Source: an uncultured Gammaproteobacteria bacterium (GTDB lineage Bacteria; Patescibacteriota; Microgenomatia; JAMCZE01). Taken from it: a stretch of 64,000 nucleotides of DNA. The translations under genes were made by a program, and so were the position numbers. Where the stretch lies: the NCBI GenBank assembly GCA_964641255.1, contig CAZXMM010000001.1, positions 473,984 to 537,983 on the forward strand, given 5' to 3'. The number at the start of each line of letters is the position of its first letter. The stretch's first letter is position 1. Of this stretch, positions 4,802 through 32,297 are shown in pieces. The notes beneath the pieces are model-generated. The model was not told where the DNA came from, did no database searches, and saw only the letters and a list, made by a program, of their open reading frames with translations.

Positions 4802-5566
4802 ACCCTAGCTGATCAGATGGAAGTGATCGTTGTTGATGATGGATCAACAGATAGTACAAAGTTAAAAATTAAGAGCCCAAAGTTTAAAGAGCTCGTATTT
4901 CTTGAGCAGCAGCACGAAGGACCTGGGGCAGCCAGAAATCTGGGTGCCAGCAAAGCTAAGGGAGAGATTCTTGTTTTTGTTGATGCGGATATGGAATTCG
5001 CCCCCGATTTTTTAGAAAAACTTATTGCCCCGATTGGCAAAAATGGAGTTATTGGCACTTTTTCTAAAGAGGAATTTCTTTTGAATAAAGATTCTGCGTT
5101 AGCTCGGTGTTGGAACCTCAACCTAGGTCGGCAAGCCAATCGAATGCATCCGGACAATTACCCTAATACCCAAAATGTTTTCCGTGCTATTTTGAAAGCG
5201 AAATTTAATGAAGCTCAAGGTTTTGAAACAACTATTGGTTACACCGATGACTGGTCACTGTCTCGCAAGCTAAAAACCCTTGCTGTTGTTGCTCCTGGTG
5301 CAATCTATTTCCATGCTAACCCCCACAAATGGTTAGAGATTTGGCAGCAGGCCCGCTGGTTTGGGAAAAACGAATTTCTTACCGGTAGTTTTGTTAGAAA
5401 ACTTTACAATTTGTATCGGTATTTACCGTTCCTTTCCATGATTAAAGGCATCTATGGTGCGATAAAATATCAAGAGCCACAGTTCGTTGCTTTTAAGATT
5501 GTTTACGATACTGGAGTATTTATCAGTGTGCTATTTTCCTTTTTAGGTGAACAGAAAGCAAAATAA
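4721..5566 (+). CDS. Glycosyltransferase family 2
   Basis: 'LSVIIPVYNEAEVI...VIVVDDGSTDST...FVDADMEF' is the canonical GT2 N-terminal DXD region. Confidence 0.8.
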   Translation: MTKLSVIIPVYNEAEVITNCLDSLYKQTLADQMEVIVVDDGSTDSTKLKIKSPKFKELVFLEQQHEGPGAARNLGASKAKGEILVFVDADMEFAPDFLEKLIAPIGKNGVIGTFSKEEFLLNKDSALARCWNLNLGRQANRMHPDNYPNTQNVFRAILKAKFNEAQGFETTIGYTDDWSLSRKLKTLAVVAPGAIYFHANPHKWLEIWQQARWFGKNEFLTGSFVRKLYNLYRYLPFLSMIKGIYGAIKYQEPQFVAFKIVYDTGVFISVLFSFLGEQKAK

Positions 5567-6863: not shown

Positions 6864-6929
6864 GGACAATTTACCAAGCCTGCTTTTAATTTTTTTACAA
6901 CTTAACCTTTACGGTATTTTTATATTTGT

Positions 6930-8177: not shown

Positions 8178-8186
8178 TTAAATAAA

Positions 8187-9317
8187 ATGAGAATTGGTAT
8201 TGATATTAGTCAAATTGTGTTTTCGGGTACTGGCGTTGCCATGTATACCCGCATGCTAATTGACGAGCTCCTTAAAATTGACCACCAAAATGACTATATT
8301 TTGTATGGTTCCAGTTTGCGACAAAGCGGGCAATTTAGGTCATTTGCCAAAAACAAAAAAGTGACTTCCAGTTTTTGGTCCATTCCGCCAACCCTTAACA
8401 CCATTCTTCATAACGATCTTCACACTGTGCCCATAGAGACATTTACAGGCCAACTTAATCTCTTCCATGCCAGCGATTGGCTCTCTCCTAAAACCCAGTG
8501 TCCCAAGGTCACCACTATTCATGATTTGGTCGTCTACCGTTCCCCAGAGTCGACTCACCCTGCCATTATCGCCACCCAGAAAAAGACGCTAGCGCTGGCT
8601 AAAAAGGAATGTGCCCATATCATCGTCGACTCACAGGCAACAAAGCAAGATTGTATGGAAATTTTAGGAATTCCAGAAAAAATGATGTCTGTTATTCATT
8701 TAGCTTCTGGCAATAATGCTGTTGCCTTTTCGCAAAGAAGTGAGGTGGAAAAAAAGGAAGCTGCAAGGCGTGCGTTAAAGACCTATCAAATTACAAAGCC
8801 TTACTTTTTCGCTGTAGGTACTAGGCAACCTCGAAAAAATATCGACCGTCTCATTGAAGCTTTCAAACTTTTTCCAAAAGACAGTTGTGAGCTGGTTATC
8901 GCGGGCAACTACGGTTGGGGTAACGAAATGAGCAATGAGCAATTGGCAATGAATAATATAAAAATTCTGGGATTCGTTCCAGAACAGGAGCTTGGAGGTC
9001 TTTATTCTGGTGCACTGGCTTTTGTCTACCCGAGTTTGTATGAAGGATTTGGTATTCCTATCTTGGAAGCCATGACTATTGGCACGCCAGTGATCACCTC
9101 CAATTTATCCAGCATGCCGGAAGCGGGAGGTAAAGCTGCTATCTATATTGATCCTTTTTCAGCGAGTGATCTGGCCGAGAAAATGAAATTCGTTTTGGAT
9201 TTATCATCCAGTAAGCGGGAAAAGTTGATTGATCTGGGCAAAACTCACGCTAAGACATTTACCTGGGAAAAAACAGCTAACGAAACCTTGAAAATTTATC
9301 GAGCATTTTCCTCATGA
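8187..9317 (+). CDS. Glycosyltransferase family 4
   Basis: '[29 protein letters not shown]' is the GT4 EX7E region. Confidence 0.85.
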   Translation: MRIGIDISQIVFSGTGVAMYTRMLIDELLKIDHQNDYILYGSSLRQSGQFRSFAKNKKVTSSFWSIPPTLNTILHNDLHTVPIETFTGQLNLFHASDWLSPKTQCPKVTTIHDLVVYRSPESTHPAIIATQKKTLALAKKECAHIIVDSQATKQDCMEILGIPEKMMSVIHLASGNNAVAFSQRSEVEKKEAARRALKTYQITKPYFFAVGTRQPRKNIDRLIEAFKLFPKDSCELVIAGNYGWGNEMSNEQLAMNNIKILGFVPEQELGGLYSGALAFVYPSLYEGFGIPILEAMTIGTPVITSNLSSMPEAGGKAAIYIDPFSASDLAEKMKFVLDLSSSKREKLIDLGKTHAKTFTWEKTANETLKIYRAFSS

Positions 9318-10006
9318 ATGTAGCTTCGCTATCAGTTTTTTTCCCGGCTTTCAATGAAGAGGATAATATTGCTCGCACCATTACTGAGGCGAAAAAAGTT
9401 TTAGTGCCACTTAAGATCCCCTGGGAGATTATTGTTGTTGATGATGGATCCTTTGATGGTACAGCCAGAGAAGCAGTAAAGACTAGTCAGGGAGACAAAC
9501 GGATTCGCGTTATTAGTCAAAAAAACGGAGGTTATGGAGCGGCACTGCAAACAGGTTTTAAGGAAGCCAAATATGACTGGATAGTTTATACTGATGCCGA
9601 CGGACAATTTGATTTTAACGATCTTCACAGGTTTTTAGAACTTGCTAAGAGCTACGACGCAATCTGGGGCTTTAGAATGAAACGCAATGACCCTTGGTAC
9701 CGAGCTTTGTTTGCCAGGGTTTGGCGCATATCGGTTCTATTCCTTTTTCATCTGCCGCTTAGAGATTTAGATTGTGGATTCAAACTGATTAAAAAATCAG
9801 TAATTGAACAGGTGCTGCCTCTTAGGTCCAGGCGGGGAGCCATGATTAATGTGGAACTAGCGGCAAAAATAATAAAGAAAGGGTTCCGGCTAGGCGAAGT
9901 CGGGGTCCCCCATCGCCCTCGCCAATTTGGAACGCCCACCGGCTTTTCTTTACCCGTCATTATTATGTCCTACCTCGATTTAGTCCGCTTGCGCTTTGTT
10001 TTATGA
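9314..10006 (+). CDS. GT2 polyprenol-phosphate sugar synthase (Dpm1/GtrB/ArnC-like)
   Basis: 'LSVFFPAFNEEDNI...WEIIVVDDGSFDGT...YTDADGQFD', 230 aa. This is the typical donor-synthesising partner of GT-C enzymes. Confidence 0.75.
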   Translation: MNVASLSVFFPAFNEEDNIARTITEAKKVLVPLKIPWEIIVVDDGSFDGTAREAVKTSQGDKRIRVISQKNGGYGAALQTGFKEAKYDWIVYTDADGQFDFNDLHRFLELAKSYDAIWGFRMKRNDPWYRALFARVWRISVLFLFHLPLRDLDCGFKLIKKSVIEQVLPLRSRRGAMINVELAAKIIKKGFRLGEVGVPHRPRQFGTPTGFSLPVIIMSYLDLVRLRFVL

Positions 10007-11400
10007 ACGCGATGAAAATTGTCGGGTGTTTGGTGGGTGGAGGAATTGTCGTGGTTTTAAGTTTTCTTCTCCCCTTTACCTATTGGCCAGAAATGCTGAC
10101 CTGGCCCTATCTCATGGGTTTGGGTTGGTTACCCTACCGGGATATCACAATTATTCATACCCCGCTTTTACTGTGGAAGATTGAGCTCTTTTACCGTCTG
10201 CTAGGGCCAACACTATTCACTCTTCATTTAGTCGGAACGCTGCTTATCATTGGAAACGCCGCTAGTATTGTCCTTTTTACCAATAAACTTACAAACCAGT
10301 TTGTAAGATCGCTCGCCGCCGGAGCCCTCTTTGTTCTCTTAAGCTTTTGTTTTCAGGGAAATACTGTCTGGTTTGATACCGCTTTGCCGCTTCTACTTGT
10401 TCCCCTCTGGTGGTTTCTTACCCGACTGGAGAAGAAACAAACTAGGCCAGTACTTTTAGTGGCCGGGACATTGTTAGGGTTAGCTTTTTGGACCAAACAG
10501 ACCGCACTCTATTTGTTTCCGGTTTTTGTTTTATTTTTTGGCTACCTACATTTTGTCAAAAAACTTCTATTTACGGTGGTTTTGAAAAGCGCTATTTGGA
10601 TTTCTTTACCCTGTCTTATAATTTCCCTACTTGTCCTTTCTCCCCTTCTGATATGGGGAGTGGAGGACGACTTTTTCTATTGGGCCATTCGTTTTGTATT
10701 TTTTAAACCGTTTGAAAGTAGTGGGAGCCATAGTTACGTTCTTTTACCCGCCCTGCACCAGCTAGGAATAGTCTTGGTACTCATGGGTATTGGGGTATAC
10801 CACTCTTTTCGGGCCAAAACATTACCCGTTCTTCTTGCCTGCGCCTTTATGCTGTTTTCCCTACTGTTTGCTTTCCCCCGGTTTGAATACTTTCATTTAA
10901 TTCCCAGTCTGGCTTTTCTGGCTTTAATCTTAGGGCTAGCCACCGGAATTTCCAACCGGTGGCTTAGTGTTGGTTTGGTTGGCCTAGTCCTTATGTTGGC
11001 CCTTTTTGTTGGCTGGCGTAACCACCAGTTTACACACACTTTTGTAGATCCTAGTACTATCAAGCTAGCAGATACTATTACAAAGAACTACCCGACTAAA
11101 AGTATCTATACCCTTAATGGTCCTGATCAGGTTTATTTTCTCGCCAAACGTCAACCCGCTTTTAAACCCTGGTTTGCTCAATTACCCTGGTATTTTAAAT
11201 ACTATGGAGAAGAAAGGTATCTGAGCGATTTTAAAGCAAGTGAACCGGAAATTATTATCTATGTTCCGTACAGGGCTGTAGCCGATCACGGACTCGGGGC
11301 CTTTGTTCCCGAGATACTCTTGAGCTATGTTTCAAAGCGCTACACTAAGGTGGAGGAAATTGACGGTGTTTATATATTAAGACAGGTTCGTCATGACTAA
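10003..11400 (+). CDS. Polytopic membrane protein, GT-C-like
   Basis: 465 aa, many TM helices. 'IIHTPLLLWK' resembles the hPPL motif. Confidence 0.4.
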   Translation: MNAMKIVGCLVGGGIVVVLSFLLPFTYWPEMLTWPYLMGLGWLPYRDITIIHTPLLLWKIELFYRLLGPTLFTLHLVGTLLIIGNAASIVLFTNKLTNQFVRSLAAGALFVLLSFCFQGNTVWFDTALPLLLVPLWWFLTRLEKKQTRPVLLVAGTLLGLAFWTKQTALYLFPVFVLFFGYLHFVKKLLFTVVLKSAIWISLPCLIISLLVLSPLLIWGVEDDFFYWAIRFVFFKPFESSGSHSYVLLPALHQLGIVLVLMGIGVYHSFRAKTLPVLLACAFMLFSLLFAFPRFEYFHLIPSLAFLALILGLATGISNRWLSVGLVGLVLMLALFVGWRNHQFTHTFVDPSTIKLADTITKNYPTKSIYTLNGPDQVYFLAKRQPAFKPWFAQLPWYFKYYGEERYLSDFKASEPEIIIYVPYRAVADHGLGAFVPEILLSYVSKRYTKVEEIDGVYILRQVRHD

Positions 11401-12541
11401 GCTACTGTCGAAAATCGGGTCATACCTGGGGTGTCACTCCTGGCTAATTATTCTTGGAATCTGTGCTTCGGTGGGACTGTTTTACTTGTCTTCCTTTAGC
11501 GCGCCTTTTTATAGGGAGGATTATGAATTTCTTTTGATTCAGCTACCCCGGGATCTGTTTAGTGCTATTCCCCCAGTTCATTATCATCCGATCTCAATTC
11601 ACCTCTTTTACTACTTTTCAAAGCTGGCTTTCGGATCGAGTTACGGCCTCTACCATCTGGTTCTCTATCTCTTTTACATGGGGTCATTTTTCTTTATCTA
11701 TGCCATTGCCAGGGAATTTTTAAAGTCAAAGACAAAAGCCTTTCTTATTCTTATTCTTTACGGCTTTAATATCTCCTTTTTTCCCCATTTCTACTGGATA
11801 GCTGTTTCTTATTTTACAATTGGATCGTTTTTTTTCTTTGGAGCGGTCTATTTTTTTCTAAAACAGAAGCCGTGGGCGGCCTGGGCGACAGGGGGATTTA
11901 TTCTGGCTTCACTCGGCAGCAATGACGGTAGTGTGGTTATCTTTCCGCTTCTTTATCTGTTAAGTTGGTATCAACGCTTTTTCCCGCGGCGCCTCATTCC
12001 TGCTACCGTTCTTGCCGGTGTGTTTGTTGTTTTCCGTTTTTTCATTCTTAAGCTCCCAGCTGAACAAAGTTATAGTATGCATGTTGATTTTCGTATCGTC
12101 AAAACTATTCAGTGGTACATACTGCGGGCCCTCAATTTACCTGAGGGGATTCGCTTTAGTGGCGATTTATCACTTGTTATTTTGTTTGGCTTACTTCTCT
12201 TGGTGCTAGGACTCGGCTTTATAAGAGAGGTGGGAAGGGGAACTCTTAGCAAAAGACTCACAATTTTCGGTGTCCTTTGGTTTTTAATTGCCGGTGGCCC
12301 GTTTTTTCTTCTCCCCGATCACATGTCAGCTTACTACCTGACCTTTGCTTTCCTGGGCTTTGCCCTAATAGTCGTTCAACTTTTAAACACCAAAGCGCTA
12401 ATGGTCGTTTTTCTCATCATTTATTTCCTAATGGCGGTTAAGGGATTGACCTTTCTTGAGCGAACTCACTGGATTATACTAAAGACTATTGGTACGCCAG
12501 CAAAATTTTACCAGTTAGATAAATCCCATCTAGGAAATTAA
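11393..12541 (+). CDS. Polytopic membrane protein (possible GT-C)
   Basis: 382 aa and strongly hydrophobic. 'FYREDYEF' near the first luminal loop. Confidence 0.35.
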   Translation: MTKLLSKIGSYLGCHSWLIILGICASVGLFYLSSFSAPFYREDYEFLLIQLPRDLFSAIPPVHYHPISIHLFYYFSKLAFGSSYGLYHLVLYLFYMGSFFFIYAIAREFLKSKTKAFLILILYGFNISFFPHFYWIAVSYFTIGSFFFFGAVYFFLKQKPWAAWATGGFILASLGSNDGSVVIFPLLYLLSWYQRFFPRRLIPATVLAGVFVVFRFFILKLPAEQSYSMHVDFRIVKTIQWYILRALNLPEGIRFSGDLSLVILFGLLLLVLGLGFIREVGRGTLSKRLTIFGVLWFLIAGGPFFLLPDHMSAYYLTFAFLGFALIVVQLLNTKALMVVFLIIYFLMAVKGLTFLERTHWIILKTIGTPAKFYQLDKSHLGN

Positions 12542-12542
12542 C

Positions 12543-13694
12543 ATGCTAGTTGGAATCAACGGTAACGAAGCGAATGTGACTCACCGGGTGGGGAGTGGTC
12601 AATATGCGTTTGAACTCATTTCTCATTTGGCTACTCTGGCCAGTGGCGAGACCAAGTTTAAAATTTACTTGGAAGCGGAGCCGATGAGTGATTTTCCTAA
12701 ACCTTCAGACTTTTGGGAGTATAAAGTCATTCCCCACCAAAGATTATGGACACTTACGGCTTTACAAAAAGCCCTTCTTAGGGAAAAACTCCAAGGAACT
12801 GCTCCTGATGTTTTTTTTACACCTAGTCACTATGCTCCATTGTATATGCCCATTCCTTCCGTCATTGCTATCATGGATTTATCGTTTGAACGGTTTCCGA
12901 CCTATTTTAAGAAAAAAGATTATTTTCAACTAAAGTATTGGAGTTGGATTTGCGCGAAACAAGCCAAACATATTTTGACAATTTCCCAGTTTAGTAAAAA
13001 AGAAATAACAGCGATTTACAGCTTGCCTGAGAACAAAGTTACGGTGACTCTTTTAGGGTATGACGAGGCAAGGTTTAATGGGACCATTAAAAAACAAACC
13101 GCCAAGATTAAGGAAATTAAACAAAAATATAAAATTTCCGGGGATTATCTTCTTTTTTTGGGAACGCTACAACCGAGAAAAAATCTACTTCGCCTCATTG
13201 AAGCTTTTTCTCAGCTCGAAAATAAAAGCCTACAACTGGTTATTGTTGGCATGATTAATGAAGGCCGCGGGGGTTGGATGAACGCCCCGATCTTTGAACG
13301 AGTGAAGGAGCTAGGCTTGGAAACAAGAGTAGTCTTCACGGGCTTTGCTCCTGATCCTGAGGCACCCTATTTAATGGCGGGAGCAATGGGGTATGTCCTA
13401 CCTAGTCTTTACGAAGGCTTTGGTATCCCGCCGATTGAGGCAATGGCCGTGGGGACACCAGTGATTGTCTCGAAGGTCTCGAGTTTACCGGAGATTTGTG
13501 GTGAGGCTGCCATTTACATTGATGATCCCTACAGTGTGGACTCCATCAAAGTGGCTATGGAGGCGTTTTTAGCCTTGAGCCCAGCTGAGCGTGAGAAAAA
13601 GGCCAAACTTGGTCTGGGGTATGTAACACGATATAATTGGCAGGCTACTGCCCAGGAGACCCTGACAGTGCTTAAAAGGGTAGCTAGTTCTTAG
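12543..13694 (+). CDS. Glycosyltransferase family 4
   Basis: '[39 protein letters not shown]'. Confidence 0.85.
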
Positions 13695-13695: not shown

Positions 13696-14292
13696 ATGTT
13701 TAAAGATAAACACGGACACCAACTCACACTTGCTCAAGCACTCCCCAAAATAGTGGGCAGATTTGGAAGCTACCTTCTTGATTTTGAACTGATGGTACTT
13801 ACGTTACTTGGCAACATTCCTTTGCATTTTATTCGCAACTTGGGTTATTCCTTTGCGGGATTAAAAATTGGTAAGGGAAGTGCCATTCACATGTGGGCAA
13901 GGTTTTACGAGCCCTCTAACATCACGGTAGGGCAGGGCACTATCATTGGTGACAATGCTTTTATTGATGGTCGAGACAAAGTCACTATTGGCAACCATGT
14001 AGACATTGCCTCGGCAGTTCTTATCTATAACTCCGAGCACGACATCAACTCAGCTGATTTTCACGCAATCCTGGGTCCGGTGACCATCGGCGACTATGTT
14101 TTTATTGGCCCCAGGGTTACTATTCTTCCCGGAGTAAGTATTGGTATCGGGGCCGTTATAGCTGCCGGGGCAGTAGTGACCAAGGATGTGCCTGAGTTTG
14201 CTATTGTGGGCGGGGTACCTGCCAAAGTAATTGGGGAGCGCAAAAATCGGGATTTGCACTATCGTTTGGGTCGGGCTAAGCTGTTTCAGTAG
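13696..14292 (+). CDS. Sugar O-acetyltransferase, hexapeptide-repeat (LbH) family
   Basis: Left-handed beta-helix hexapeptide repeats 'IGDNAFIDGRDKVTIGNHVDIASAV...IGPRVTILPGVSIGIGAVIAAGAVV'. Confidence 0.8.
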   Translation: MFKDKHGHQLTLAQALPKIVGRFGSYLLDFELMVLTLLGNIPLHFIRNLGYSFAGLKIGKGSAIHMWARFYEPSNITVGQGTIIGDNAFIDGRDKVTIGNHVDIASAVLIYNSEHDINSADFHAILGPVTIGDYVFIGPRVTILPGVSIGIGAVIAAGAVVTKDVPEFAIVGGVPAKVIGERKNRDLHYRLGRAKLFQ

Positions 14293-14299: not shown

Positions 14300-17200
14300 A
14301 TGAAAAAGATTCTCACTTTTATCGACACGAATATCCTGGCTATTCTGGCGGGCTGTCTGCTCGCTTTTATTCCCTTGTATCCCAAAATTCCCCTGTTTGA
14401 CATTCTTCCTGGCTACATTGTTCGGGTAAGGGCAGAGGATTTCTTGGTGGGCTTTTCAATTTTAGTCTTTCTCAGCCAAATTCTTCGCAAGAGGGTAAAG
14501 CTTGAGAAGAACGTACCAACCGTGGGGCTTCTTTCCTATTTGGCTATTGGCCTACTGTCAGTCATAGTAGCAGTACTCGTAGTGCAAACCGTCCCCATGG
14601 AACTTAAGCACGTGGGAAAGACTCTGCTTCACTGGATGCGCCGCATTGAGTATTTTTCCCTATTTTTCATTGTATTTGGATCGATTAAATCGCTTAGGAC
14701 TGCCAAGGTCTTAGTGTGGATCTTTTTTATCGTTCTTCTTCTTATTACTCTCTATGGCTATGGTCAAAAATACTTTGCCTACCCCTATTTCCCTGCTTTC
14801 TCAACGATGAACCGGGAGTTTTCTAAGGGTTGGGTACTGTATTTGACGCAAAACGCCCGGGTCCTGTCTACTTTTGGAGGACACTACGATTTGGCGGGCT
14901 ATTTAGTGATTGCTCTTTCCCTGGGGTGGAGTTTCTTTTTTGGTGCCAAACGGCGCTTAGTGAAGGTGGCTTTTGGACTGATCATTCTCGCCGCTTTCTG
15001 GCTCTTGATTCTTACTGCCTCGCGGGCTTCCTTTTTGGGCTACTTAGCCGCAGTAGTGGCAGTGTGTTTTATTTGGATGTTTAAACGGGATTTTATGTGG
15101 GCGCTCTCCCGGTGTCTAGCAGTGATCTGTCTGAGCATACTTCTCATGTTGTCGTTTGGAGATCTCTCAGATCGGTTTCTGCATTTACTCCACCTGGAGG
15201 AACGAGTTACCGGTCTTAGGGAAATCGTGCTTCGTCCGATGTCTGCTCCCCCTCCCGGACAGACACTTCTTGAGAACAATTCTATTGCCGCCGTAACTTC
15301 CAAAACCGATATGCCTCCTACCCCGGCCGATAAATATTTTGACGAAGTAAAAAAGCAATCGCTACCGGCCGATGTTAACAAAGATGCTCCACCCCTAATG
15401 ATTCCTACTAAAACAGCCAGTGGATCAACAGTGATGGTAGAAAAGACTCGGACCTATTCCCAAAATGCCGTACTTTTTGATCTATCTACTGGTATTCGGT
15501 TTGATTCGACCTGGCCTCGGGCCATTGAAGGATTCAAAGCTAGTCCGCTGTTTGGGAGCGGTTATGCGACTCTAACCAAAAGTACCAAGTATGAGTTTTC
15601 CGAAGCTGAGTCGACCGATAATGGATTTTTACGTTCCTTAGGTGAGACTGGGCTACTTGGCTTTCTTGCCTATTTTGGAACCTTAATAGCCATGGTAGTG
15701 GTAGTCATTAAATCACTTGGCGGTATTAAAGACACTTTTATTTACTCTTTAGCTGCTGCCTTTGTGGCTTTTACAATGGGGCTATTGGTTAATGCGGTCA
15801 TGCTAGATATTTTTGAAGCCAGTAAGGTGGCCTATGTTTACTTTGGTATGGCCGGGTTAACTATGGGTACCATTTATCTTTTCAAGAAAAAAATAACAGA
15901 AGATTACGAGCCACTAAAAATTAATTTTGCCATTTTGCCCTTTTTAAAGTGGCTCTGGCGCTTTGTTCGTTCGGATTTTTTCCTTCTGGGAATAGTCGTG
16001 GTCTGTTCTTTTCAATTACGCACCTATCGGTTGAGCGAGCCATTGGCAGACTGGCATTCTTGGCGCCAAGCAGATACCTCGGCGGTAACAAGAGATTTTG
16101 ATAGGAATGGTCGCATTGATTGGCTCTATCCAACTTTTGAGGATCTCTCTTCTATTCCTTCCGGTCTTCCTAATCCCAGGGGGCTGCGGATGGTGGAGTT
16201 CCCTATTTATAATGCTGCGAGTGTCACTGTCAAAAAGATCTTTAAAGAACTTTCGGTTGAGGAGGCGGGGAGAGTGACTACCAATCTCATGTGGTCGGGA
16301 AGCGTAATCTTTCTTTTCCTCTTAACTAGACGCTATCTATCAAGGAGGATAGCCTACTGTGTTGCCATTAGCATGGCGGTTATTCCCTTTGGTATTTTCT
16401 ATGGTCGAAGCATTCTTCCCGATCCCACAATGGTAACTTTTTCTCTGGGGGCTCAGTGGGCGATGAGTCGCTATCTGGAAAAGAAGAAGATCGCCTCACT
16501 CTTTTTAAGTCTAGTCTTTGCGGCAGTCGCCCTTCTTGTTAAACCATTTGCAATTTTTCTCCTTCTTCCCATAGCTTATCTTTGGTGGGTGGCTAACAGG
16601 TTCAATCTAAAAAAATGGCTAGTGCTGGCAGTATTTTTTGGCATTGCCGCGGCTCCCATGCTCTGGTGGCGCCACTGGATTAGCCAGTTTCCTGAGGGGA
16701 TACCTGCCAGCGACTGGCTGTTTAATGGCGATAGTATTCGTTTCAAAGGGGCTTTTTTCTATTGGCTTTTTGCGGATCGGATTGGACGCCTTATTCTTGG
16801 CCATTGGGGACTGATTCTTCTAGGATTTGGGCTCATTAGAAATTACGAAGGCAAGGCCCGCTTTTATTCCCTAGTCTTATTTTTGTCTTCCCTGCTGTGG
16901 TTGTGCGTCTTTGCCACCGGAAACGTTCGTCACGATTATTATCAAATACTTCTTATGCCCTCTCTAGCGCTTTTAGTCGGGGGAGGAGTGGAACTGCTGC
17001 TCTTCAGTAAAATTGCTGGGCTTAACACTTATCTGAGTAAAGGATTGGGAACTGTGGCGTTTGTCTTTATGTGCGCCTTTGGGTGGTACTTTGTTAAGGA
17101 CTTTTTTAATGTCAATCACCCGGAACTAGCCCTGGCCGGTAAAGCGGTTCGTGAGGTAGCAAATGACCGGTCATTGGTTGTGGCTCCCTACAGCGGCGAT

Positions 17201-17434
17201 ACCGCCTTTTTGTACCAAACCGAGCGGAAGGGCTGGCCGATCATTGAAGGAACGATTCAGGACATGGTGGCAAAAGGGGCCGATTACTATGTTAGTGTTA
17301 ACTATGACGATCCTACCAAGGCCCTTATGCAGGAGGCCCTGGGTAACAATAATGTTCATGAGTATAAAATCTTAGTCACCGAGCCAGAGTATGTGATTAT
17401 CCAGCTAGTTCCCGACCGCTTACTACCAAAATAG
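14300..17434 (+). CDS. Fusion membrane protein: N-terminal O-antigen ligase/polymerase-like (Wzy_C-type) domain plus C-terminal GT-C (PMT_2/ArnT-like) domain
   Basis: The N-terminal half has about 12 TM helices, a large Pro-rich external loop and the O-antigen-ligase signature 'STDNGFLRSLGETGLLGFLAY'. The C-terminal half has 'PFGIFYGRSILPDPTMVTFSLGAQWAMSRYLE..LLVKPFAIFLLLPIAYLWW', typical of PMT_2. The probable start is the ATG at 14300 (MKKILTF), not the upstream GTG at 14231. Ends with a TAG stop. Confidence 0.6.
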   Translation: MKKILTFIDTNILAILAGCLLAFIPLYPKIPLFDILPGYIVRVRAEDFLVGFSILVFLSQILRKRVKLEKNVPTVGLLSYLAIGLLSVIVAVLVVQTVPMELKHVGKTLLHWMRRIEYFSLFFIVFGSIKSLRTAKVLVWIFFIVLLLITLYGYGQKYFAYPYFPAFSTMNREFSKGWVLYLTQNARVLSTFGGHYDLAGYLVIALSLGWSFFFGAKRRLVKVAFGLIILAAFWLLILTASRASFLGYLAAVVAVCFIWMFKRDFMWALSRCLAVICLSILLMLSFGDLSDRFLHLLHLEERVTGLREIVLRPMSAPPPGQTLLENNSIAAVTSKTDMPPTPADKYFDEVKKQSLPADVNKDAPPLMIPTKTASGSTVMVEKTRTYSQNAVLFDLSTGIRFDSTWPRAIEGFKASPLFGSGYATLTKSTKYEFSEAESTDNGFLRSLGETGLLGFLAYFGTLIAMVVVVIKSLGGIKDTFIYSLAAAFVAFTMGLLVNAVMLDIFEASKVAYVYFGMAGLTMGTIYLFKKKITEDYEPLKINFAILPFLKWLWRFVRSDFFLLGIVVVCSFQLRTYRLSEPLADWHSWRQADTSAVTRDFDRNGRIDWLYPTFEDLSSIPSGLPNPRGLRMVEFPIYNAASVTVKKIFKELSVEEAGRVTTNLMWSGSVIFLFLLTRRYLSRRIAYCVAISMAVIPFGIFYGRSILPDPTMVTFSLGAQWAMSRYLEKKKIASLFLSLVFAAVALLVKPFAIFLLLPIAYLWWVANRFNLKKWLVLAVFFGIAAAPMLWWRHWISQFPEGIPASDWLFNGDSIRFKGAFFYWLFADRIGRLILGHWGLILLGFGLIRNYEGKARFYSLVLFLSSLLWLCVFATGNVRHDYYQILLMPSLALLVGGGVELLLFSKIAGLNTYLSKGLGTVAFVFMCAFGWYFVKDFFNVNHPELALAGKAVREVANDRSLVVAPYSGDTAFLYQTERKGWPIIEGTIQDMVAKGADYYVSVNYDDPTKALMQEALGNNNVHEYKILVTEPEYVIIQLVPDRLLPK

Positions 17435-17445: not shown

Positions 17446-18651
17446 ATGAAGATACTTCTTTTGACTCTGTATTTGCCCTACCCTCCGAATTCAGGGGGCC
17501 AGATTAGGTCCTACAACCTCATTAAGCATCTGTCCAAAAAGCACCAAATTACTTTGGTCTCGCTTATTAAAAAGGGCGAGGAGAAATATGCCGGTGAGAT
17601 GGAAAAGTATTGTGAGAAAGTCGTCTACTTTTACCGCCCCGAGAAGCCCTGGACGCTTCCCAACATTCTTAAAACCGGCCTTAGTCTTTATCCCTTCGTG
17701 GTGATGCGCAACTACACTCCGGAAGTGAAGAAGTTTTTGGAAAACGAGCTGAAGCAAGTCGCTTATGATCTAATCCATGTAGAAACCTTTTACTTAATGC
17801 CCCATATCCCGCCAACAGTGACCCCAATTCTACTTGTTGACCAAACGATCGAGTTTGAAGTCTATCGTCACTACGTTGATACTTATCGTTTTTGGTTGTT
17901 ACGTCCGCTGCTTTATATTGATGTTCTTAAACTGAAGTTTTGGGAAACCAAACTCTGGAAAGAAGCCAAAATGGTGGGAGCGGTTTCTGAAGCCGACAAA
18001 AAGAAGATTTTAGAATTAGCTCCCAATGTTAAAGTAGGCATTATTCCTAACGCTCCCGGAGAGGACCTCTCTAATTTGTATGCTAAGCGCCACCCCGACT
18101 TTAAAAAACCGATTGTTTTTTACCAGAGCAACTTTCATTGGATGCAAAACATTGAAGGGGCCAACATTTTGGCCAACGAAGTTTTTCCAAAAGTAAAAAA
18201 ACAGATTCCGGAAGCGGTGTGTATGATAGCTGGACAAAATACTCAAGGAAAAGTAGACCACTTGGCTAGAGAAGATGTCTATATCGTTCCGATGGCTACC
18301 TCAGATATTGAAGGGGTGGTTAATGCCTACAAGCAAGGCACCATCTTTCTGGCCCCCCTAAGGGGACCAGGGGGGACGAGGCTTAAGATTCTTGGGGCAA
18401 TGACGGCCGGTGTTCCAGTCGTTACTACCTCAGTAGGGGCCCAAGGGTTAGATGTTGAAAGTGGAAAAAATATTATGATTGCTGATGATGCCAGGGGACT
18501 GGCTGATGCGGTAGTAAAACTCTTAAAGGATAAAAAACTGTATGATCAAATAGTAAAAAATGCTAAGGCTCTCGTAGAAAAAAATTATGATTGGGGAGCC
18601 ATATCTAAAAATTTAGAAAAGATTTATGAAGAAACCATTGAAAAAAGATAG
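17446..18651 (+). CDS. Glycosyltransferase family 4
   Basis: 'GGTRLKILGAMTAGVPVVTTSVGAQGLDVESGKN'. Confidence 0.8.
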   Translation: MKILLLTLYLPYPPNSGGQIRSYNLIKHLSKKHQITLVSLIKKGEEKYAGEMEKYCEKVVYFYRPEKPWTLPNILKTGLSLYPFVVMRNYTPEVKKFLENELKQVAYDLIHVETFYLMPHIPPTVTPILLVDQTIEFEVYRHYVDTYRFWLLRPLLYIDVLKLKFWETKLWKEAKMVGAVSEADKKKILELAPNVKVGIIPNAPGEDLSNLYAKRHPDFKKPIVFYQSNFHWMQNIEGANILANEVFPKVKKQIPEAVCMIAGQNTQGKVDHLAREDVYIVPMATSDIEGVVNAYKQGTIFLAPLRGPGGTRLKILGAMTAGVPVVTTSVGAQGLDVESGKNIMIADDARGLADAVVKLLKDKKLYDQIVKNAKALVEKNYDWGAISKNLEKIYEETIEKR

Positions 18652-19543
18652 CACTGGGAGTAAGACTAAACTCTCAATTGTGATCCTAAATCACAATACC
18701 TCAAAGCTTCTTAGCGAGTGTCTTGCTTCAATTCCCACCGCTTTAACACATGAAATTATTGTCGTTGATAATGCGAGTACTGACGATTCGGTCGCTATGC
18801 TTAAAAAGCAGTTTCCGACTGTCAAAGTAATAGAAAACAGTGACAATGTGGGTTATACCCGGGGCAATAATGCGGCGAAGGACTATGCCTTAGGAAAGTA
18901 TGTCCTATTTCTTAATTCAGATACTACAGTTGAGAAAAACACTCTTTCGGTAATGACAGAATTTATGGAGGAGCACCCTGATTGCGGGGCCTCCACTTGT
19001 TTGACCCTCTTGCCTACTGGCAAACTCTATTATGCTTGCCATCGCGGCTTCCCCACTCCCTGGAATTCTCTTTGCTACTTTAGTGGGCTGGCTAAACTAT
19101 TTCCTTGGAGTAAGTTTTTTGCCGGGTATACAGCCACCTATCTTCCGCTTACTACCGTTCATGAAATTGATGCTTGCTCGGGAACCTTTCTTCTCATTAG
19201 AAAAACGCTTCTTGATGAGATAGGTTGGTTTGATGAAGACTATTTCGCTTACGGCGAAGATATTGAAATGTGTTTCCAAGTAAAAGCTCGGGGGTTTAAA
19301 GTCATGTTTAACCCCCACGTAAAAATTACTCATTATTGGGGAGCGACCAGTGGCCTAAAAAGTACCTCAGCGCATCTAGCGGTGGCCAATGCTGAAATAA
19401 AAAAGAAATGGAATAGAGCCCGGTATCAGGCAATGAAGATCTTTTACGACAAGCACTACCGAAAAAATTATCCCGAATTTGTTCGCTGGCTGATCTTTCT
19501 CGGCATTAGGGCGACCATGTATCTGCGCCAAGGTCAGGACTAA
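18626..19543 (+). CDS. Glycosyltransferase family 2
   Basis: 'LSIVILNHNTSKLLSECLASI..IIVVDNASTDDS..FLNSDT'. Confidence 0.8.
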   Translation: MKKPLKKDSTGSKTKLSIVILNHNTSKLLSECLASIPTALTHEIIVVDNASTDDSVAMLKKQFPTVKVIENSDNVGYTRGNNAAKDYALGKYVLFLNSDTTVEKNTLSVMTEFMEEHPDCGASTCLTLLPTGKLYYACHRGFPTPWNSLCYFSGLAKLFPWSKFFAGYTATYLPLTTVHEIDACSGTFLLIRKTLLDEIGWFDEDYFAYGEDIEMCFQVKARGFKVMFNPHVKITHYWGATSGLKSTSAHLAVANAEIKKKWNRARYQAMKIFYDKHYRKNYPEFVRWLIFLGIRATMYLRQGQD

Positions 19544-19547: not shown

Positions 19548-20654
19548 ATGAAGATTATCATTGACGCCAGATTTTGGGGGCCCAGTCACACTGGCCTAGG
19601 AGTCTATACCAGAGAGCTCGTGACGGCCCTTAGCAGGGTTTATGATAAAAACTCGTATATTCTTTTTATTCGGCGCGAGATGGAAAAGGAGATAATTCTC
19701 CCCGCAAACTTTACTTTACAAGTTGTTGAGGCCAAACCTTATACTTTTGCCGAGCAGCTACTACTAGCTTGGTACCTGTTTCGTTTCCGGCCCGATTTGG
19801 TACATTTTCCCAGTATTAATGTTCCCTTGCTGTTTTTTGGCCGCTACGTGGTTACGGTTCATGACATTATTAAGCACAATTTTCGAGGCAGAGACAGTAC
19901 TACCCTTCCCGAGATAACATACTGGCTTAAATATGGTGTTTACCGCTTAGCAGAGTGGTTAGTAGTAGCTAGAGCCAGTCGCGTTATCGTTCCCTCTTTT
20001 GCCGTCGCAGCTGAAGTAGAGCGGGTCTATCCTTTGGCAAAGGACAAAACGAGTGTAACTTTGGAAGCAGCAGTGCTAAGTAGTAAAGGAGACACTAGTG
20101 CTAAAGTAGATTTAAATCTTCCCAGGAAATTCGCGGTTTATACCGGCAATGCTTATCCGCATAAGAATCTTACTAAATTGGTTATTGCTTGGAAGGAAGT
20201 ATATAAAAATACAGGGATGGAGCTTGTTATTTCTTCTGGCAGGTCGGTTTTTAGTAACCGGATTGAACAGCTAATCCAGACAAATGGTGCCAAAGACTAT
20301 ATTCATTTTAAAGGCTACTTATCAGATGAGGAGTTAAAAACCGTTTATAGTCGGGCAAATTTATATGTATTTCCTTCCCTTATGGAGGGGTTTGGTATTC
20401 CAGCGCTTGATGCCATGAATTTTAATCTCCCCGTGGTGTGTTCGGACATTGCTGTGTTCAGAGAAGTGTACGGGGCAGCAGCCAGTTATTTTGATCCCCG
20501 GGATGTACAAGCAATCGCTAAGGCCGTAACTTGGGTCGAAAACCATCCGGGAGTGAAGCAGAAACTTAAGCTGGCGGGTAAAAAACAGGTGGCATTGTAT
20601 TCCTGGAAAAAAACAGCAGAGCAAACACTGGCTGTCTATAATAAGGCCCTATGA
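19548..20654 (+). CDS. Glycosyltransferase family 4
   Basis: 'LMEGFGIPALDAMNFNLPVVCSDIAVFREVYG'. Confidence 0.8.
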   Translation: MKIIIDARFWGPSHTGLGVYTRELVTALSRVYDKNSYILFIRREMEKEIILPANFTLQVVEAKPYTFAEQLLLAWYLFRFRPDLVHFPSINVPLLFFGRYVVTVHDIIKHNFRGRDSTTLPEITYWLKYGVYRLAEWLVVARASRVIVPSFAVAAEVERVYPLAKDKTSVTLEAAVLSSKGDTSAKVDLNLPRKFAVYTGNAYPHKNLTKLVIAWKEVYKNTGMELVISSGRSVFSNRIEQLIQTNGAKDYIHFKGYLSDEELKTVYSRANLYVFPSLMEGFGIPALDAMNFNLPVVCSDIAVFREVYGAAASYFDPRDVQAIAKAVTWVENHPGVKQKLKLAGKKQVALYSWKKTAEQTLAVYNKAL

Positions 20655-21739
20655 AGGTAGCACTTGTTTATGACCGGGTCAATAAATGGGGTGGGGCGGA
20701 ACGGGTACTGTTGGCTCTTCATGAGCTTTTTCCTGACGCCCCCTTGTACACCTCTGTCTACGACTCCCAAAAAGCACCCTGGGCCAGTGTTTTTTCAGTT
20801 AAAACCTCCTTTTTACAGCATCTTCCTCTTCCTAAAGATCATCATGAACTTTATCCATTTCTAATGGGGCCGGCTTTTGAAGCGTTTAATTTTGATGAAT
20901 TTGATTTGGTTATTTCGGTCACTTCCGAGTATGCCAAAGCGGTTATCACTAAGCCCAAAACAAAGCATATTTGCCTTTGTCTCACACCAACGGGCTATTT
21001 GTGGTCCAATTACGATAGTTATTTTTCTTCAAAGAGCCAGTGGTTTAAATGGCTTAGTACGCCGCTTGTTAAATGGTTGCGCTTTTACGACAGGATCATT
21101 GCTCAGCGGCCTGACTCTTATATCGCTATCTCAGAAATCGTAAAAGAGCGCATCGAGACTTATTACAAGCGAAGTAGCACAGTTATCTACCCCTTTCTGG
21201 AGTTTAAAGAATTTGTTAAAAGCCAGCAAAAACCGGAAAATTTTTATTTACTTGTGTCTAGACTGGTGCCTAACAAGAGATTAGATGTGGCAATTACCGC
21301 GTTTAACCAGTTAGGGTGGCCACTAAAAATTGTAGGAGTAGGCGGTGAGATGGGTAGGCTCAAAAAACTAGCCAAAGCTAATATTGAATTTGTGGGTTAT
21401 TTGACAGACACGAAGTTAGCAAGCTACTATAGACGCACCAAAGCTCTTATTGTTCCTGGGGCCGAGGATTTTGGCTTAGTGGCTCTTGAGGCTCAATCGT
21501 TTGGCAAGCCGGTGATAGCTCTTGCCAAGGGTGGGGTTTTAGAGACGGTAATTGCTGATAAAACCGGGGTGCTTTACGAAGACCAAACGGTAGTTGGCTT
21601 ACTAGAGGCGTTAAAAAGATTTGAGTCGCTTACCTTTGATCCCAAGGACTGTCAAAAGCAGGCTAAGAGGTTTTCCAAAGAAAAATTTAACCGGGCAGTG
21701 CTTGCCTATATCGACAAAGTATGGTGTACAGTTTCTTAA
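20651..21739 (+). CDS. Glycosyltransferase family 4
   Basis: N-terminal 'MKVALVYDRVNKWGGAERVL' and C-terminal 'DFGLVALEAQSFGKPVIALAKGGVLETV'. Confidence 0.75.
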   Translation: MKVALVYDRVNKWGGAERVLLALHELFPDAPLYTSVYDSQKAPWASVFSVKTSFLQHLPLPKDHHELYPFLMGPAFEAFNFDEFDLVISVTSEYAKAVITKPKTKHICLCLTPTGYLWSNYDSYFSSKSQWFKWLSTPLVKWLRFYDRIIAQRPDSYIAISEIVKERIETYYKRSSTVIYPFLEFKEFVKSQQKPENFYLLVSRLVPNKRLDVAITAFNQLGWPLKIVGVGGEMGRLKKLAKANIEFVGYLTDTKLASYYRRTKALIVPGAEDFGLVALEAQSFGKPVIALAKGGVLETVIADKTGVLYEDQTVVGLLEALKRFESLTFDPKDCQKQAKRFSKEKFNRAVLAYIDKVWCTVS

Positions 21740-22371
21740 AAAGATCTTTAGATGTATGCAGTGCCGTTGGAATTGCCCTAATATTTTCTCCTCTTTTGTT
21801 TCTCATTTCGATTGCTATTAAATTTGATTCTCCTGGTCCGGTAATTTTTAAACATCGACGTATTGGGCTGAATGGAAAAATTTTTTACTTGTGGAAATTC
21901 CGTTCGATGGTAGAGAACGCAAATACTAAGGATTTTGCCAACAACAAAGCCTTTATCAGCAAGTTTAAGAAAAAAGAGGGTTGGAAACTGCAAGCCAGTG
22001 AAGATCCGAGGATAACCCGGGTGGGTCGGTTCATTAGGAAATACAGCTTTGACGAACTTCCTAATCTGTGGAATATCTTTATTGGGGATATGAGCATTGT
22101 AGGTCCTAGAGCGTACCGTCGAGATAGTTTCGGGGATGAGGTAGAGGAACAGTTAAAGCTTTATCCCGACCGTCCGGATTTGCGAGAGAAACTAAAGATT
22201 GCCTGGTCGGTTAAGCCCGGTCTTACTGGGCCATGGCAAACGTCTGGTCGTAATAAACTGTCTTGGGATAAGCGGGTGGAATTAGACGCGGCTTATGCTC
22301 AGTCAAAGTCAATTCTTGGAGATATTAGCTATATTCTCAAAACGCCATTTGTGATGTTAAATAAATGGTAA
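21721..22371 (+). CDS. Polyprenyl-phosphate sugar-1-phosphate transferase (bacterial sugar transferase family, WbaP/WcaJ-like C-terminal domain)
   Basis: 'DSPGPVIFKHRRIGLNGKIFYLWKFRSM...DELPNLWNIFIGDMSIVGPRA' is the canonical PF02397 motif set. This is the initiating enzyme for Und-PP-linked glycans. Confidence 0.85.
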   Translation: MVYSFLKRSLDVCSAVGIALIFSPLLFLISIAIKFDSPGPVIFKHRRIGLNGKIFYLWKFRSMVENANTKDFANNKAFISKFKKKEGWKLQASEDPRITRVGRFIRKYSFDELPNLWNIFIGDMSIVGPRAYRRDSFGDEVEEQLKLYPDRPDLREKLKIAWSVKPGLTGPWQTSGRNKLSWDKRVELDAAYAQSKSILGDISYILKTPFVMLNKW

Positions 22372-22395: not shown

Positions 22396-24348
22396 ATGGA
22401 CGAAACAATTGAAAAATTAGATTTATCTTCCCCGACTGCTGTAACTACTGAGGAAGAAACAGTAGTCCCTTCCTACCCTAAGTCTCGGCGTTCATTTAAA
22501 AAGCCGCTACTTATTTTGGGGGTAGTTTTACTGGTACTCCTACTAATTGGTGGGATACTTGGGTTACTGCTTGGTGTTCCTTTATCAAAAACTTATGCTG
22601 ATACCCAAAAAACTATCGCTTCCGCTCGAGAAATAAACACTGCTCTAAAGAGCCAAGATATTAAAAAAACCAGCGAGGCTATTAGTAAAACCCAAAGCTT
22701 AGTGAAAGTGGTCCAAGCTGACCTCAGAGCCATTGGTTGGGCAAAATCTCTCCCGGTGGTTGGCCCCTACATCGCCGATGGTGAACATGGGGCAACAGCC
22801 GCATTACACGGATTGCGGGCTGCTTCGATTATGACCCAAGCGGTCGAGCCCTATGCTGACCTATTGGGACTCGAGGGACAAGGGACTTATGTGGGAGGAA
22901 CGGCTGAAGATCGACTAGCTAAGATGGTAGAAACTTTCGACAAAGTTACTCCCCAGATAGATCAGGTGGCGGTAGAAATTGAGGCAGTTAAAAAGGAGCT
23001 GGCCTTCATTGACCCCAATCGTTATCCAGAGGAGTTCCGGGGTCGCTTAGTTCGTTCTCAGATAGTGGAAGCTAAAAATATTGTTACTGGAGTAGATGAG
23101 ATTTTAACCCAAGCTAGGCCACTAGTTAAGCATATGCCGGCCCTGTTAGGGTCAAAAGGAGAGGCCAAATACATGATTCTTTTCCAAAATGATAAAGAGT
23201 TGCGCCCAACCGGAGGTTTTATTACTGCTTATGCGGTCTTTAGAATTGAAAAAGGCAAGATTGCCCTTGATGCCGCTGACGATATCTACAAACTTGATGA
23301 CACTGTAGGAAAAAAAGTTGCTCCGCCTGACCCGATTGCTAAATATCTTAACGTCTTTTCTTGGAGATTGAGAGATTCAAATTTTTCGCCAGATTTTTAC
23401 AATTCCATGAAAGCATTCGAGGATATTTATGCTTCCTCTAGTCAAAAAAAGAAACTTGATGGGATTTTAGCTGTGGATACTCATTTGTTGGTCCGGATGA
23501 TGGACGTGCTGGGGCCAATTAAAGTTTACGACACCGAGTTTAATACTAAAATCGTCCCTCAGTGTAATTGTCCAATGGTGGTCTACGAACTCTTAAAGCA
23601 AGCTGGTACACCACGCGGTTACTGGGTTGATAATCGTAAAGACATGATTGGTCAACTGTTATCGGCGATGATGAAAAAAGCTCTTGCTACCCCCAAACAA
23701 GTCTATGCACCTCTGTTTCAAGCGGCAATCGAAGAAGCCACCCAAAAGCACCTCCTTATCTATTTGCATAACGAAGATGCTGAAAAGGGTATTGAAGTGC
23801 TAAACTTTGCTGGCAGGATCAAGACTAATCCAGGTGGAGACTATCTTCACATTAACGATGCAAACTTAGGGGGGGCCAAATCAAATCTCTATGTCACTCA
23901 AGCTGTAACTGATAAGGTGATGATTCATGACGGTGGAGCAGACGTTGAGTTAACGATTGATTATAAATTCCCCCACGGTGCGGATAATTGTTCTCTCGAG
24001 CGCAAAGAGGGACTCTGTCTTGCCGGTATTTACCGTGACTACCTGCGTGTTTACCTACCGCTTGGAGCCAGTGTTAAAGAGGTTAAGGGGTTTGAAAATA
24101 AAAGTACCACCTTTGAAGATTTGGGCCACACCGTGGTTGACGGCTTCTTTACAGTTGTTCCCCAAGGGTTAGCGCAAATCAAGATTAAGTATACGGTAAA
24201 GGGAGACTTTAAGAAAAATGGCGAGTATAAACTGATGATTCAAAAACAACCCGGGACTGTAGGTAATCTTTACAAGTTAAGTGTTGACGGCAAAGACCAA
24301 CAACCCTTTAATCTTACGGAAGATAAGGAAATCGTTATCAAGCTGTGA
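22396..24348 (+). CDS. Membrane-anchored exported protein, DUF4012-like
   Basis: An N-terminal TM helix then a roughly 580-aa extracytoplasmic domain. 'MILFQNDKELRPTGGFITAYAVF' resembles the conserved DUF4012 core. This family typically neighbours polysaccharide gene clusters. Confidence 0.45.
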   Translation: MDETIEKLDLSSPTAVTTEEETVVPSYPKSRRSFKKPLLILGVVLLVLLLIGGILGLLLGVPLSKTYADTQKTIASAREINTALKSQDIKKTSEAISKTQSLVKVVQADLRAIGWAKSLPVVGPYIADGEHGATAALHGLRAASIMTQAVEPYADLLGLEGQGTYVGGTAEDRLAKMVETFDKVTPQIDQVAVEIEAVKKELAFIDPNRYPEEFRGRLVRSQIVEAKNIVTGVDEILTQARPLVKHMPALLGSKGEAKYMILFQNDKELRPTGGFITAYAVFRIEKGKIALDAADDIYKLDDTVGKKVAPPDPIAKYLNVFSWRLRDSNFSPDFYNSMKAFEDIYASSSQKKKLDGILAVDTHLLVRMMDVLGPIKVYDTEFNTKIVPQCNCPMVVYELLKQAGTPRGYWVDNRKDMIGQLLSAMMKKALATPKQVYAPLFQAAIEEATQKHLLIYLHNEDAEKGIEVLNFAGRIKTNPGGDYLHINDANLGGAKSNLYVTQAVTDKVMIHDGGADVELTIDYKFPHGADNCSLERKEGLCLAGIYRDYLRVYLPLGASVKEVKGFENKSTTFEDLGHTVVDGFFTVVPQGLAQIKIKYTVKGDFKKNGEYKLMIQKQPGTVGNLYKLSVDGKDQQPFNLTEDKEIVIKL

Positions 24349-28960: not shown

Positions 28961-28962
28961 CT

Positions 28963-31085: not shown

Positions 31086-31102
31086 GGTGTAGGCGCTAAA
31101 AA

Positions 31103-31111: not shown

Positions 31112-31138
31112 ATAGGCTCAAGAGTTGGGAAGACCAAT

Positions 31139-32293: not shown

Positions 32294-32297
32294 GCCT

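Follow-up and report, generated by a model that had tools for sequence, protein, structure and literature searches.

The gene considered here lies at 14300..17434 on the + strand of a 64,000-nucleotide stretch of contig CAZXMM010000001.1 (the whole of which is hereafter called the window), and its product carries, within one polypeptide, a Wzy_C module, then a PMT_2 module and then a soluble C-terminal domain, an arrangement proposed in the initial annotation of this DNA and borne out by both hmmscan and the structural model. These are known enzyme classes found in a new and conserved coupling, in an uncultivated Microgenomates bacterium of the candidate phyla radiation (CPR). The open reading frame (ORF) ends at 17434 and could start at either a TTG at 14231 or an ATG at 14300, the latter of which follows the stop codon of the upstream acetyltransferase gene after 7 nucleotides (nt) and agrees with the N termini of the homologues; the product is 1044 amino acids (aa) long, the previously given length of 1045 aa for what is indeed one long ORF having counted in the stop codon.

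The gene call is backed by the ORF list, by the two Pfam domains and by an identical protein in independent assemblies. Using hmmscan, Wzy_C (PF04932) was placed at aa 228-459 (14981..15676, +; profile positions 2-149 of 149; E 2.4e-12; 47.3 bits, as compared to a cut-off of 31.7) and PMT_2 (PF13231) at aa 647-790 (16238..16669, +; E 9.6e-16; 58.8 bits, cut-off 26.1), i.e., each was found above its cut-off in the half where it had been expected, and the NCBIfam scan of the fused protein yielded a single weak Agl23-like match. A 100%-identical protein is carried, in NCBI and Logan records, by a 950-kb contig as well as by a 70-kb contig assembled independently from SRR14932608, and the same domain order recurs in at least 120 full-length orthologues (a lower bound; 47-68% identity, about 990-1160 aa), which together exclude the assembly merger of two genes that had been contemplated earlier. 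Identity within the fused clade is similar for both halves (N 46-62%, C 45-58%), and the protein comprises two conserved modules, neither half of which looks degenerate. Public annotations of the orthologues read either “glycosyltransferase family 39 protein” or “O-antigen ligase family protein”, each of which covers one half of the fused protein and names a specific activity that is probably wrong. The literature was searched for a fusion of Wzy_C with a glycosyltransferase (GT) of the GT-C_A subclass, for the corresponding gene pair, and for O-antigen-ligase-like proteins of CPR bacteria, and no description of any of these was found.

Fold and conserved residues of the two halves

An AlphaFold2 model of the full-length protein, built from 42 sequences (mean predicted local distance difference test score (pLDDT) 79.3, predicted template modelling score (pTM) 0.65), predicts 12 transmembrane (TM) helices at aa 1-527, a linker at aa 528-558 (15881..15973, +) and a second helical bundle from aa 559 onwards. 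According to the positive-inside topology of both sequence and model, the linker would be cytoplasmic, and it matches the gene boundary of those loci in which the halves are split. Foldseek comparison of the full model with the PDB returned ALG12 (9s6t_A, E 7e-7, TMt 0.62), ArnT (5f15, E 1.5e-6, TMt 0.59; also 5ezm) and, as further GT-C_A matches, STT3, DPY19, PglB and AftA; WaaL (7tpg_B, E 8.6e-4, TMt 0.60) and FtsW were matched as well. Two different TM bundles, as foreseen by the initial annotation, are thereby recovered, the N half alone resembling WaaL and FtsW and the full model also ArnT, ALG12 and STT3, and, as modelled, one chain unites both GT-C structural subclasses, GT-C_B in its N-terminal and GT-C_A in its C-terminal part. 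As the charged loops obey the positive-inside rule, we infer that all invariant polar motifs, including those in the loops at aa 285-442 and aa 574-652, are situated on the membrane's outer face.

The N half (aa 1-535; 14300..15904, +) is assigned as a 12-TM GT-C_B (WaaL/SEDS-like) module by its separate model, its fold matches in the PDB and the occurrence of stand-alone relatives of ~530 aa in other Microgenomates. Modelled alone (pLDDT 80.6, pTM 0.84), it matched WaaL best (7tpg_B, E 1.1e-6, TMt 0.64) and FtsW next (8p1u_A and 8bh1_A, TMt 0.52-0.55), with no GT-C_A enzyme and no other credible fold among its PDB matches. In O-antigen ligases (GT121), two arginines bind undecaprenyl pyrophosphate (Und-PP) and a histidine activates the acceptor (PMC10920833), whereas SEDS proteins and inverting Wzy polymerases have an aspartate or glutamate at the position of the ligase histidine (PMC10920833). 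R242 of the LTASR motif (15023..15025, +), a putative ligand of the Und-PP phosphate, is invariant in alignments A1 and A4 and at least 90% conserved in alignment A2, and would be the equivalent of E. coli WaaL R215, with which it shares Wzy_C profile position ~16 and is also paired by hhalign. R400 of the SxGIRxDxxWP motif (15497..15499, +), which is invariant in all alignments, is a second putative Und-PP ligand and presumably equivalent to WaaL R288, given the likeness of its motif to E. coli SLGAR288LAMYE. D440 of the ESTDNGFLRxLGETG motif (15617..15619, +), an invariant residue across 42 fused sequences and 25+38 split or mixed ones, shares Wzy_C profile position ~130 with the catalytic histidine of O-antigen ligases (E. 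coli WaaL H338), E. coli WaaL aa 205-354 corresponding to positions 6-146 of the profile and aa 228-459 of the fused protein to positions 2-149. An invariant aspartate is thus found in place of the histidine by which ligases are recognized (H313 in 7TPG, H338 in E. coli), and which likewise defines PglL. The earlier O-antigen-ligase label is for this reason unlikely to hold in the strict sense, and the N half, judged by these three positions (R242, R400 and D440), which vary little or not at all in fused and split proteins alike, bears the polymerase/SEDS signature and not the ligase one. Local hhalign alignment to WaaL was collinear but of low probability (194-298 with 167-271, and a weak alternative of 440-472 with 338-370), aligning the N-half profile globally to E. 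coli WaaL by hhalign did not succeed, and the mapping of histidine to aspartate leans on the Pfam profile coordinates. Since FtsW and RodA are encoded separately in the window, the N half is not the peptidoglycan polymerase.

The large external loop of the N half (aa 285-442; 15152..15625, +), as delimited by the secondary structure and pLDDT of the model, contains a beta-hairpin (aa 366-382), preceded by a Pro-rich stretch modelled at low confidence (aa 312-360); its Pro-rich character, noted from the start, amounts to 11 Pro in the 84 residues of aa 312-395, and its alignment consensus keeps the motifs TSKSDQPPTP and LPPDVY.DIP. The motif STDNGFLRSLGETGLLGFLAY at aa 438-458 is present as originally quoted, and so are FGIFYGRSILPDP (aa 697-709) and LLVKPFAIFLLLPIAYLWW (aa 745-763) in the C half. 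The strictest N-half motifs, AFSTMNREFSKGW and EAESTDN, lie in segments (aa 159-194, 14774-14881, with STMNREFSKGW, and aa 435-442, 15602-15625) with a pLDDT <50, which are probably mobile catalytic or substrate loops.

The C half (aa 559-1044; 15974..17431, +) is assigned as a GT-C_A (ArnT/PMT_2-like) module by the fold matches of the full model and exists elsewhere as a stand-alone protein of ~480 aa; some orthologues match PMT (PF02366) as well. The motif of its first external loop, PLADWHSWRQADTSAV (aa 581-596; 16040..16087, +), includes the invariant D584, R589 and D592 (alignments A1 and A3), and this loop would carry the putative catalytic acid (D584/D592). Fused and split C halves have D584, R589, D592, E633, R658, R827, N875, H878 and Y880 invariant. 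Alignment to E. coli ArnT by hhalign, at low probability, sets WRQADT against WQPDET, VEFP against FEKP and LLVKPF against VMTKGF, D592 being paired with E32 of the ArnT PDET motif, and the conserved motifs are consistent with an active GT-C_A enzyme having an acidic first external loop. An extracytoplasmic alpha/beta domain (~aa 940-1044; 17117..17431, +; pLDDT 81-92) ends the chain and is kept in the split C-half proteins. No MIR domain was detected in the fused protein by Pfam at E up to 1, and PMT structures rank low for the full model (6p25, E 0.036, ~280 aligned columns), so that “glycosyltransferase family 39 protein”, as used by NCBI, is a superfamily-level name only.

Fused and split forms and their gene neighbourhood

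Scanning one genome per species revealed relatives encoded in at least 567 genomes, and 80 loci were fetched and had their ORFs re-called, 68 of which hold both halves complete. A single fused ORF is present in 26 of these 68, all of them at 46% identity or more to the protein of the window and, where the genomes are named, from Gottesmanbacteria or Microgenomates. Two separate genes, always N then C and on one strand (the N half being ~525-640 aa long, the C half ~475-530 aa), make up the other 42, the named genomes of which are Woese-, Curtiss-, Beckwith-, Pace-, Roizman- or Chisholmbacteria, and a representative-library search independently returned numerous N halves and C halves occurring on their own, at 35-49% identity. 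In the neighbour-joining tree of the N half, the fused forms are monophyletic (27/27, i.e., the 26 fused loci plus the window); in that of the C half, the fused clade consists of the same 27 plus one split locus (L078). The median gap between the N-half stop and the C-half start of the split loci is near 0 nt, with a 4-nt ATGA/GTGA overlap in 13 of them, which argues for translational coupling of the split genes. The window gene is thus a clade-specific Rosetta-stone fusion of an ancient, tightly coupled Microgenomates gene pair, and the fusion is no stand-alone oddity, but a clade-specific merger of an adjacent gene pair found Microgenomates-wide. The fusion and coupling of the pair argue that the N and C proteins work together, probably as a complex, for which a fusion of this kind is Rosetta-stone evidence. 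Stop-codon read-through in the split loci was also considered and rejected, an in-frame C half directly following the N-half stop in 15/42, where about one in three would be expected by chance.

Several variants of the arrangement were encountered among the relatives. A sister family (P0143, P0148, P0176 and locus L078 317-3406) joins the N-half module to another extension of about 500-700 aa, consisting of more TM helices and a region sometimes matching calcineurin-like metallophosphoesterase, and in L078 a separate C-half gene still follows this fusion. In locus L083 (819-3218, protein P0128), a GT2 is fused to the C half and occupies the N-half slot right after the acetyltransferase gene; this GT2 is closest to the one encoded at 18626-19543 of the window (31.5% identity). 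P0128 was dropped as a possible link to a donor synthase, being a singleton on one 4.6-kb Logan contig with no other such protein among the top 120 homologues. The Microgenomates-type locus, with conserved synteny, is also contained in many TPA_asm bins titled “uncultured Gammaproteobacteria” or “Pseudomonadales bacterium”, and in single bins titled Limisphaerales, Omnitrophota and Bathyarchaeia (loci L002-L005, L014, L025-L027 and others), names that look like placeholders or mis-binning.

The fused gene sits in a cluster of co-oriented, tightly spaced genes, whose order is kept in 40-76 of the 80 related loci. It is preceded by a GT4 gene (12543-13694, +; beside the pair in 69/80 loci) and a gene for a WcaF-like hexapeptide acetyltransferase (13696-14292, +; 62/80), and followed by genes for a GT4 (17446-18651, +), a conserved GT2 that looks rhamnosyltransferase-like (18626-19543, +), two further GT4s (19548-20654 and 20651-21739, both +), a small Bac_transf phosphoglycosyl transferase (21721-22371, +) and a single-TM DUF4012 protein (22396-24348, +), with RecO from 24345; these downstream partners keep their synteny in 40-75/80 loci, and the GT4s, the GT2, the acetyltransferase, the phosphoglycosyl transferase and the DUF4012 protein were identified by Pfam and NCBIfam. 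A Wzx-type flippase (PF01943) is encoded a few kb upstream in 12/80 related loci, fused and split alike. Neither an LCP ligase nor an ABC exporter was found in the window, and the cluster has no conserved ligase, whether of LCP type or otherwise. No lpx genes were found in the 64-kb window, which holds the peptidoglycan/dcw cluster, and CPR bacteria are not known to make lipopolysaccharide; a lipid A-core acceptor is not expected in them. With regard to possible sugar donors, an ArnC/PpgS/dolichyl-P-hexose-synthase-like GT2 (230 aa; 9314-10006) is followed by a PMT_2 GT-C, the two spanning 9314-11400; the GT2 is kept with the fusion in 4/80 loci and its PMT_2 pair overall in 2-4/80, and another GT2 (4721-5566) is conserved in 29/80.

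The DUF4012 protein (650 aa, with one N-terminal TM helix, a large external domain and an RPTGGFITAY motif) is encoded downstream of the phosphoglycosyl transferase in about 47/80 loci and has no sequence relative in the PDB; it may be the missing co-polymerase or an attachment factor.

Proposed role and its alternatives

Little is known about what makes up the CPR cell envelope. With the pair and its cluster conserved across at least 567 species-level genomes, the cluster probably produces a major Microgenomates surface glycan. The reading we prefer, and to which we would give roughly balanced chances of being right, is that the fusion of the two conserved neighbour genes represents the extracytoplasmic end of an undecaprenyl-linked glycan pathway, in which the N half polymerises and the C half modifies the same glycan. 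In such a pathway, the cytoplasmic enzymes of the cluster would build an Und-PP-oligosaccharide, which would be flipped to the outer face, where the N half might bind the Und-PP donor via R242 and R400, with D440 as the candidate base activating the acceptor; the N half would most likely polymerise the repeat unit, or move the unit to another sugar acceptor, ligation of the WaaL type being less likely. On that side of the membrane, the C half, with its acidic D584/D592 loop, would then take up the same glycan, most likely by adding a sugar from a polyprenyl-phosphate-sugar, in analogy to ArnT and GtrC-type enzymes. Fusion, or translational coupling in the split forms, would hold the two active sites in 1:1 proximity. 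The addition of an extra sugar from a polyprenyl-P-sugar by the C half, as originally put forward, would be plausible.

Comparison with known systems lends this some context. With inverting Wzy polymerases (BP-Pol families GT125-129) and SEDS proteins (clan GT-C1, GT-C_B), the N half shares a WaaL/FtsW-related multi-TM fold, a long external loop towards the module's C-terminal end, two conserved arginines and an aspartate at the acceptor-activating position, and with Wzy polymerases also a cluster initiated by a phosphoglycosyl transferase, with Wzx in some relatives. It differs from them in being very divergent (no sequence match to any solved structure), in an ~85-aa insertion in the external loop, in the extra invariant motifs GYIVRVRxEDF, STMNREFSKGW and GGHYD, and in being fused or translationally coupled to a GT-C_A enzyme, with no Wzz partner found. 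The C half, in turn, shares with ArnT, GtrC and other PMT_2-type enzymes the PMT_2 domain, the GT-C_A fold, an acidic first external loop and a small C-terminal external domain, its VEFP and LLVKP aligning (at low probability) with the FEKP and TKG motifs of ArnT; unlike ArnT, it has Phe at the equivalent of K85, unlike ArnT-type enzymes, it invariably has a Wzy_C enzyme as its partner or in the same chain, and unlike in the three-component extracytoplasmic glycosylation systems of ArnT/GtrC type, it has no strictly linked polyprenyl-P-sugar synthase or GtrA flippase of its own.

A number of observations weigh against the proposed polymerisation and modification of one glycan. The closest fold of the N half is that of a ligase (WaaL) and not of a polymerase, in a PDB library that may hold no Wzy structure. 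The residue equivalences rest on Pfam coordinates, hhalign (probability <10%) and motif reading, and querying the PDB with sequence profiles of the full protein and of either half produced no meaningful match, so that the link of the halves to solved structures is one of fold comparison only. No Wzx homologue was found in the 64-kb window, no Wzz-type co-polymerase was found, and across the 80 loci the pair is not strictly accompanied by any polyprenyl-P-sugar synthase. Contact between the modules, finally, is suggested by the fusion and gene coupling alone. The aspartate signature and the Wzx of the relatives tilt the N half towards a polymerase role, without firmly separating the alternatives.

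Carried further, the two proteins might form an obligate GT-C_B/GT-C_A complex and, with it, a class-wide, hitherto unrecognised Microgenomates envelope-glycan machine that channels the polymerisation or en-bloc transfer of an Und-PP-built glycan into a second outer transfer, be it attachment or decoration, a tentative extension which we would sooner bet against than for. If true, the Gottesmanbacteria-type protein would be the natural single-chain version of such a GT-C_B/GT-C_A complex, and the first described enzyme to join both GT-C subclasses with both active sites facing outward. The hand-over of product from Wzy-type polymerases to the next enzyme is poorly understood, and a covalent Wzy_C/GT-C_A fusion offers a defined 1:1 object for cryo-electron microscopy and reconstitution.

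The alternative that fares best is that the N half is a ligase or O-oligosaccharyltransferase, transferring the finished Und-PP-glycan en bloc to a final acceptor such as an S-layer protein, pilin or glycolipid, while the C half primes or caps with one sugar from a polyprenyl-P-sugar; this is the model of the initial annotation and would resemble, by analogy, AglB plus AglS of Haloferax or the GT25 domain of WadA. The Wzy_C family does include ligases and O-oligosaccharyltransferases, and WaaL (GT121, PDB 7TPG) is not only the best structural match, but also shares with the N half the Wzy_C family and both Und-PP-binding arginines; the failure to find Wzz, or Wzx within the window, fits as well, and one priming transferase with about six GTs could yield a single oligosaccharide. 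Ligase-plus-GT fusions are, moreover, proven to exist by WadA of Brucella, a characterised bifunctional O-antigen ligase (GT25 + GT121; PMC9938171, PMC10920833), which, like the protein described here, has a Wzy_C/ligase-type membrane module and a second glycosyltransferase in one chain acting on the same glycoconjugate. The claim that the architecture is not among the characterised systems should be tempered to this extent: no paper on it was found, but a ligase-type module with a second GT has its precedent in WadA (PMC9938171). The GT25 (GT-A) of WadA, however, is soluble, cytoplasmic and N-terminal, its sites being on opposite membrane faces, whereas the second module of the fusion is modelled as a C-terminal membrane GT-C with both sites facing outward; neither GT25 nor any other soluble GT domain was detected in the fused protein by Pfam or fold search. 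What speaks most directly against the ligase or O-oligosaccharyltransferase is that the catalytic histidine of the O-antigen ligases is an invariant aspartate here. Furthermore, the N half is ~130 residues longer than WaaL, with extra loops, and the host lineage is not known to make the lipid A-core, which would be an unexpected acceptor in CPR bacteria; the Wzx in the cluster of 12 relatives also counts against it, though it fits both models. On balance, we regard this alternative as rather unlikely.

Alternatively, the N half could polymerise on Und-PP and the C half be the ligase that moves the finished chain to a wall acceptor, a possibility we likewise consider unlikely, even if there is something to be said for it. 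The cluster lacks a conserved ligase, LCP-type or other, and no polyprenyl-P-sugar synthase is strictly co-conserved; GT-C_A includes users of lipid-PP-oligosaccharides (PMC10920833, Table 1), STT3 and PglB being among the fold matches, and the GT66 oligosaccharyltransferases are likewise GT-C_A. There is also the precedent of Lactococcus lactis, where, as proposed, WpsI (the polymerase) and WpsJ (attachment to rhamnan) are two GT-C enzymes (PMC9574508), i.e., two polytopic proteins acting sequentially outside the membrane of a monoderm on one lipid-linked glycan; these, however, are separate proteins working with C55-P-linked (monophosphate) oligosaccharides in a pathway started by a GT2 complex, and they are likened here by description, not by sequence. 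The C half, on the other hand, falls within PMT_2, and in some orthologues PMT, i.e., families of lipid-P-monosaccharide users; ALG12 and ArnT outrank PglB as fold matches; and no WWD-type or other oligosaccharyltransferase motif turned up, no search having been aimed at one.

Last, an artefact or decay, in which an assembly or frameshift error joined two genes or one half is a catalytically dead remnant, is hardly credible: a spurious merger would be easy, the halves being separate in most Microgenomates, but it is refuted by the identical protein on independent assemblies and the full-length orthologues (at least 120), with the 26 complete fused loci and the window forming one clade of 27 and both halves being similarly conserved, their invariant polar residues kept.

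Other features of the window

A complete dcw cluster at 28088-45484 encodes MraW, an FtsI-type penicillin-binding protein, Mur ligases, glutamate racemase, MurB, MurA and MraY, and also holds FtsW (40308-41459), MurG, FtsA and FtsZ; a second SEDS gene, RodA-like, is situated at 50315-51388. The presence of the dcw cluster and of the RodA-like gene indicates that the organism makes peptidoglycan. Unusually, the MurC-like ligase encoded at 35180-36913 (Mur_ligase, Mur_ligase_M and Mur_ligase_C) is fused at its C terminus to a NUDIX hydrolase domain (aa 442-524).

The regions 521-12541 and 45835-47244 are unusually dense in GT-C-like polytopic membrane proteins, with PMT_2 genes at 521, 5547 and 10003, a DUF2079 gene at 1686-3140 (-) and Pfam-less proteins of 8-12 TM helices at 3137-4801 (-), 6930-8177, 11393-12541 and 45835-47244; most of these GT-C-like genes are not kept beside the pair in relatives. 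A second glycosylation cluster at 57713-62618, with genes for a GT2, an FkbM methyltransferase (- strand), a GT4, an S-adenosylmethionine (SAM) methyltransferase and two more GT2s, has a GC content of 0.35-0.38, as opposed to about 0.43-0.46 elsewhere, and may be horizontally acquired or strain-variable. Finally, the gene at 54884-57652 (-) encodes a 922-aa protein with BNR/sortilin-type repeats and an LCAT/PGAP1-like alpha/beta lipase domain, and is adjoined by tRNA-Val at 54795-54867.

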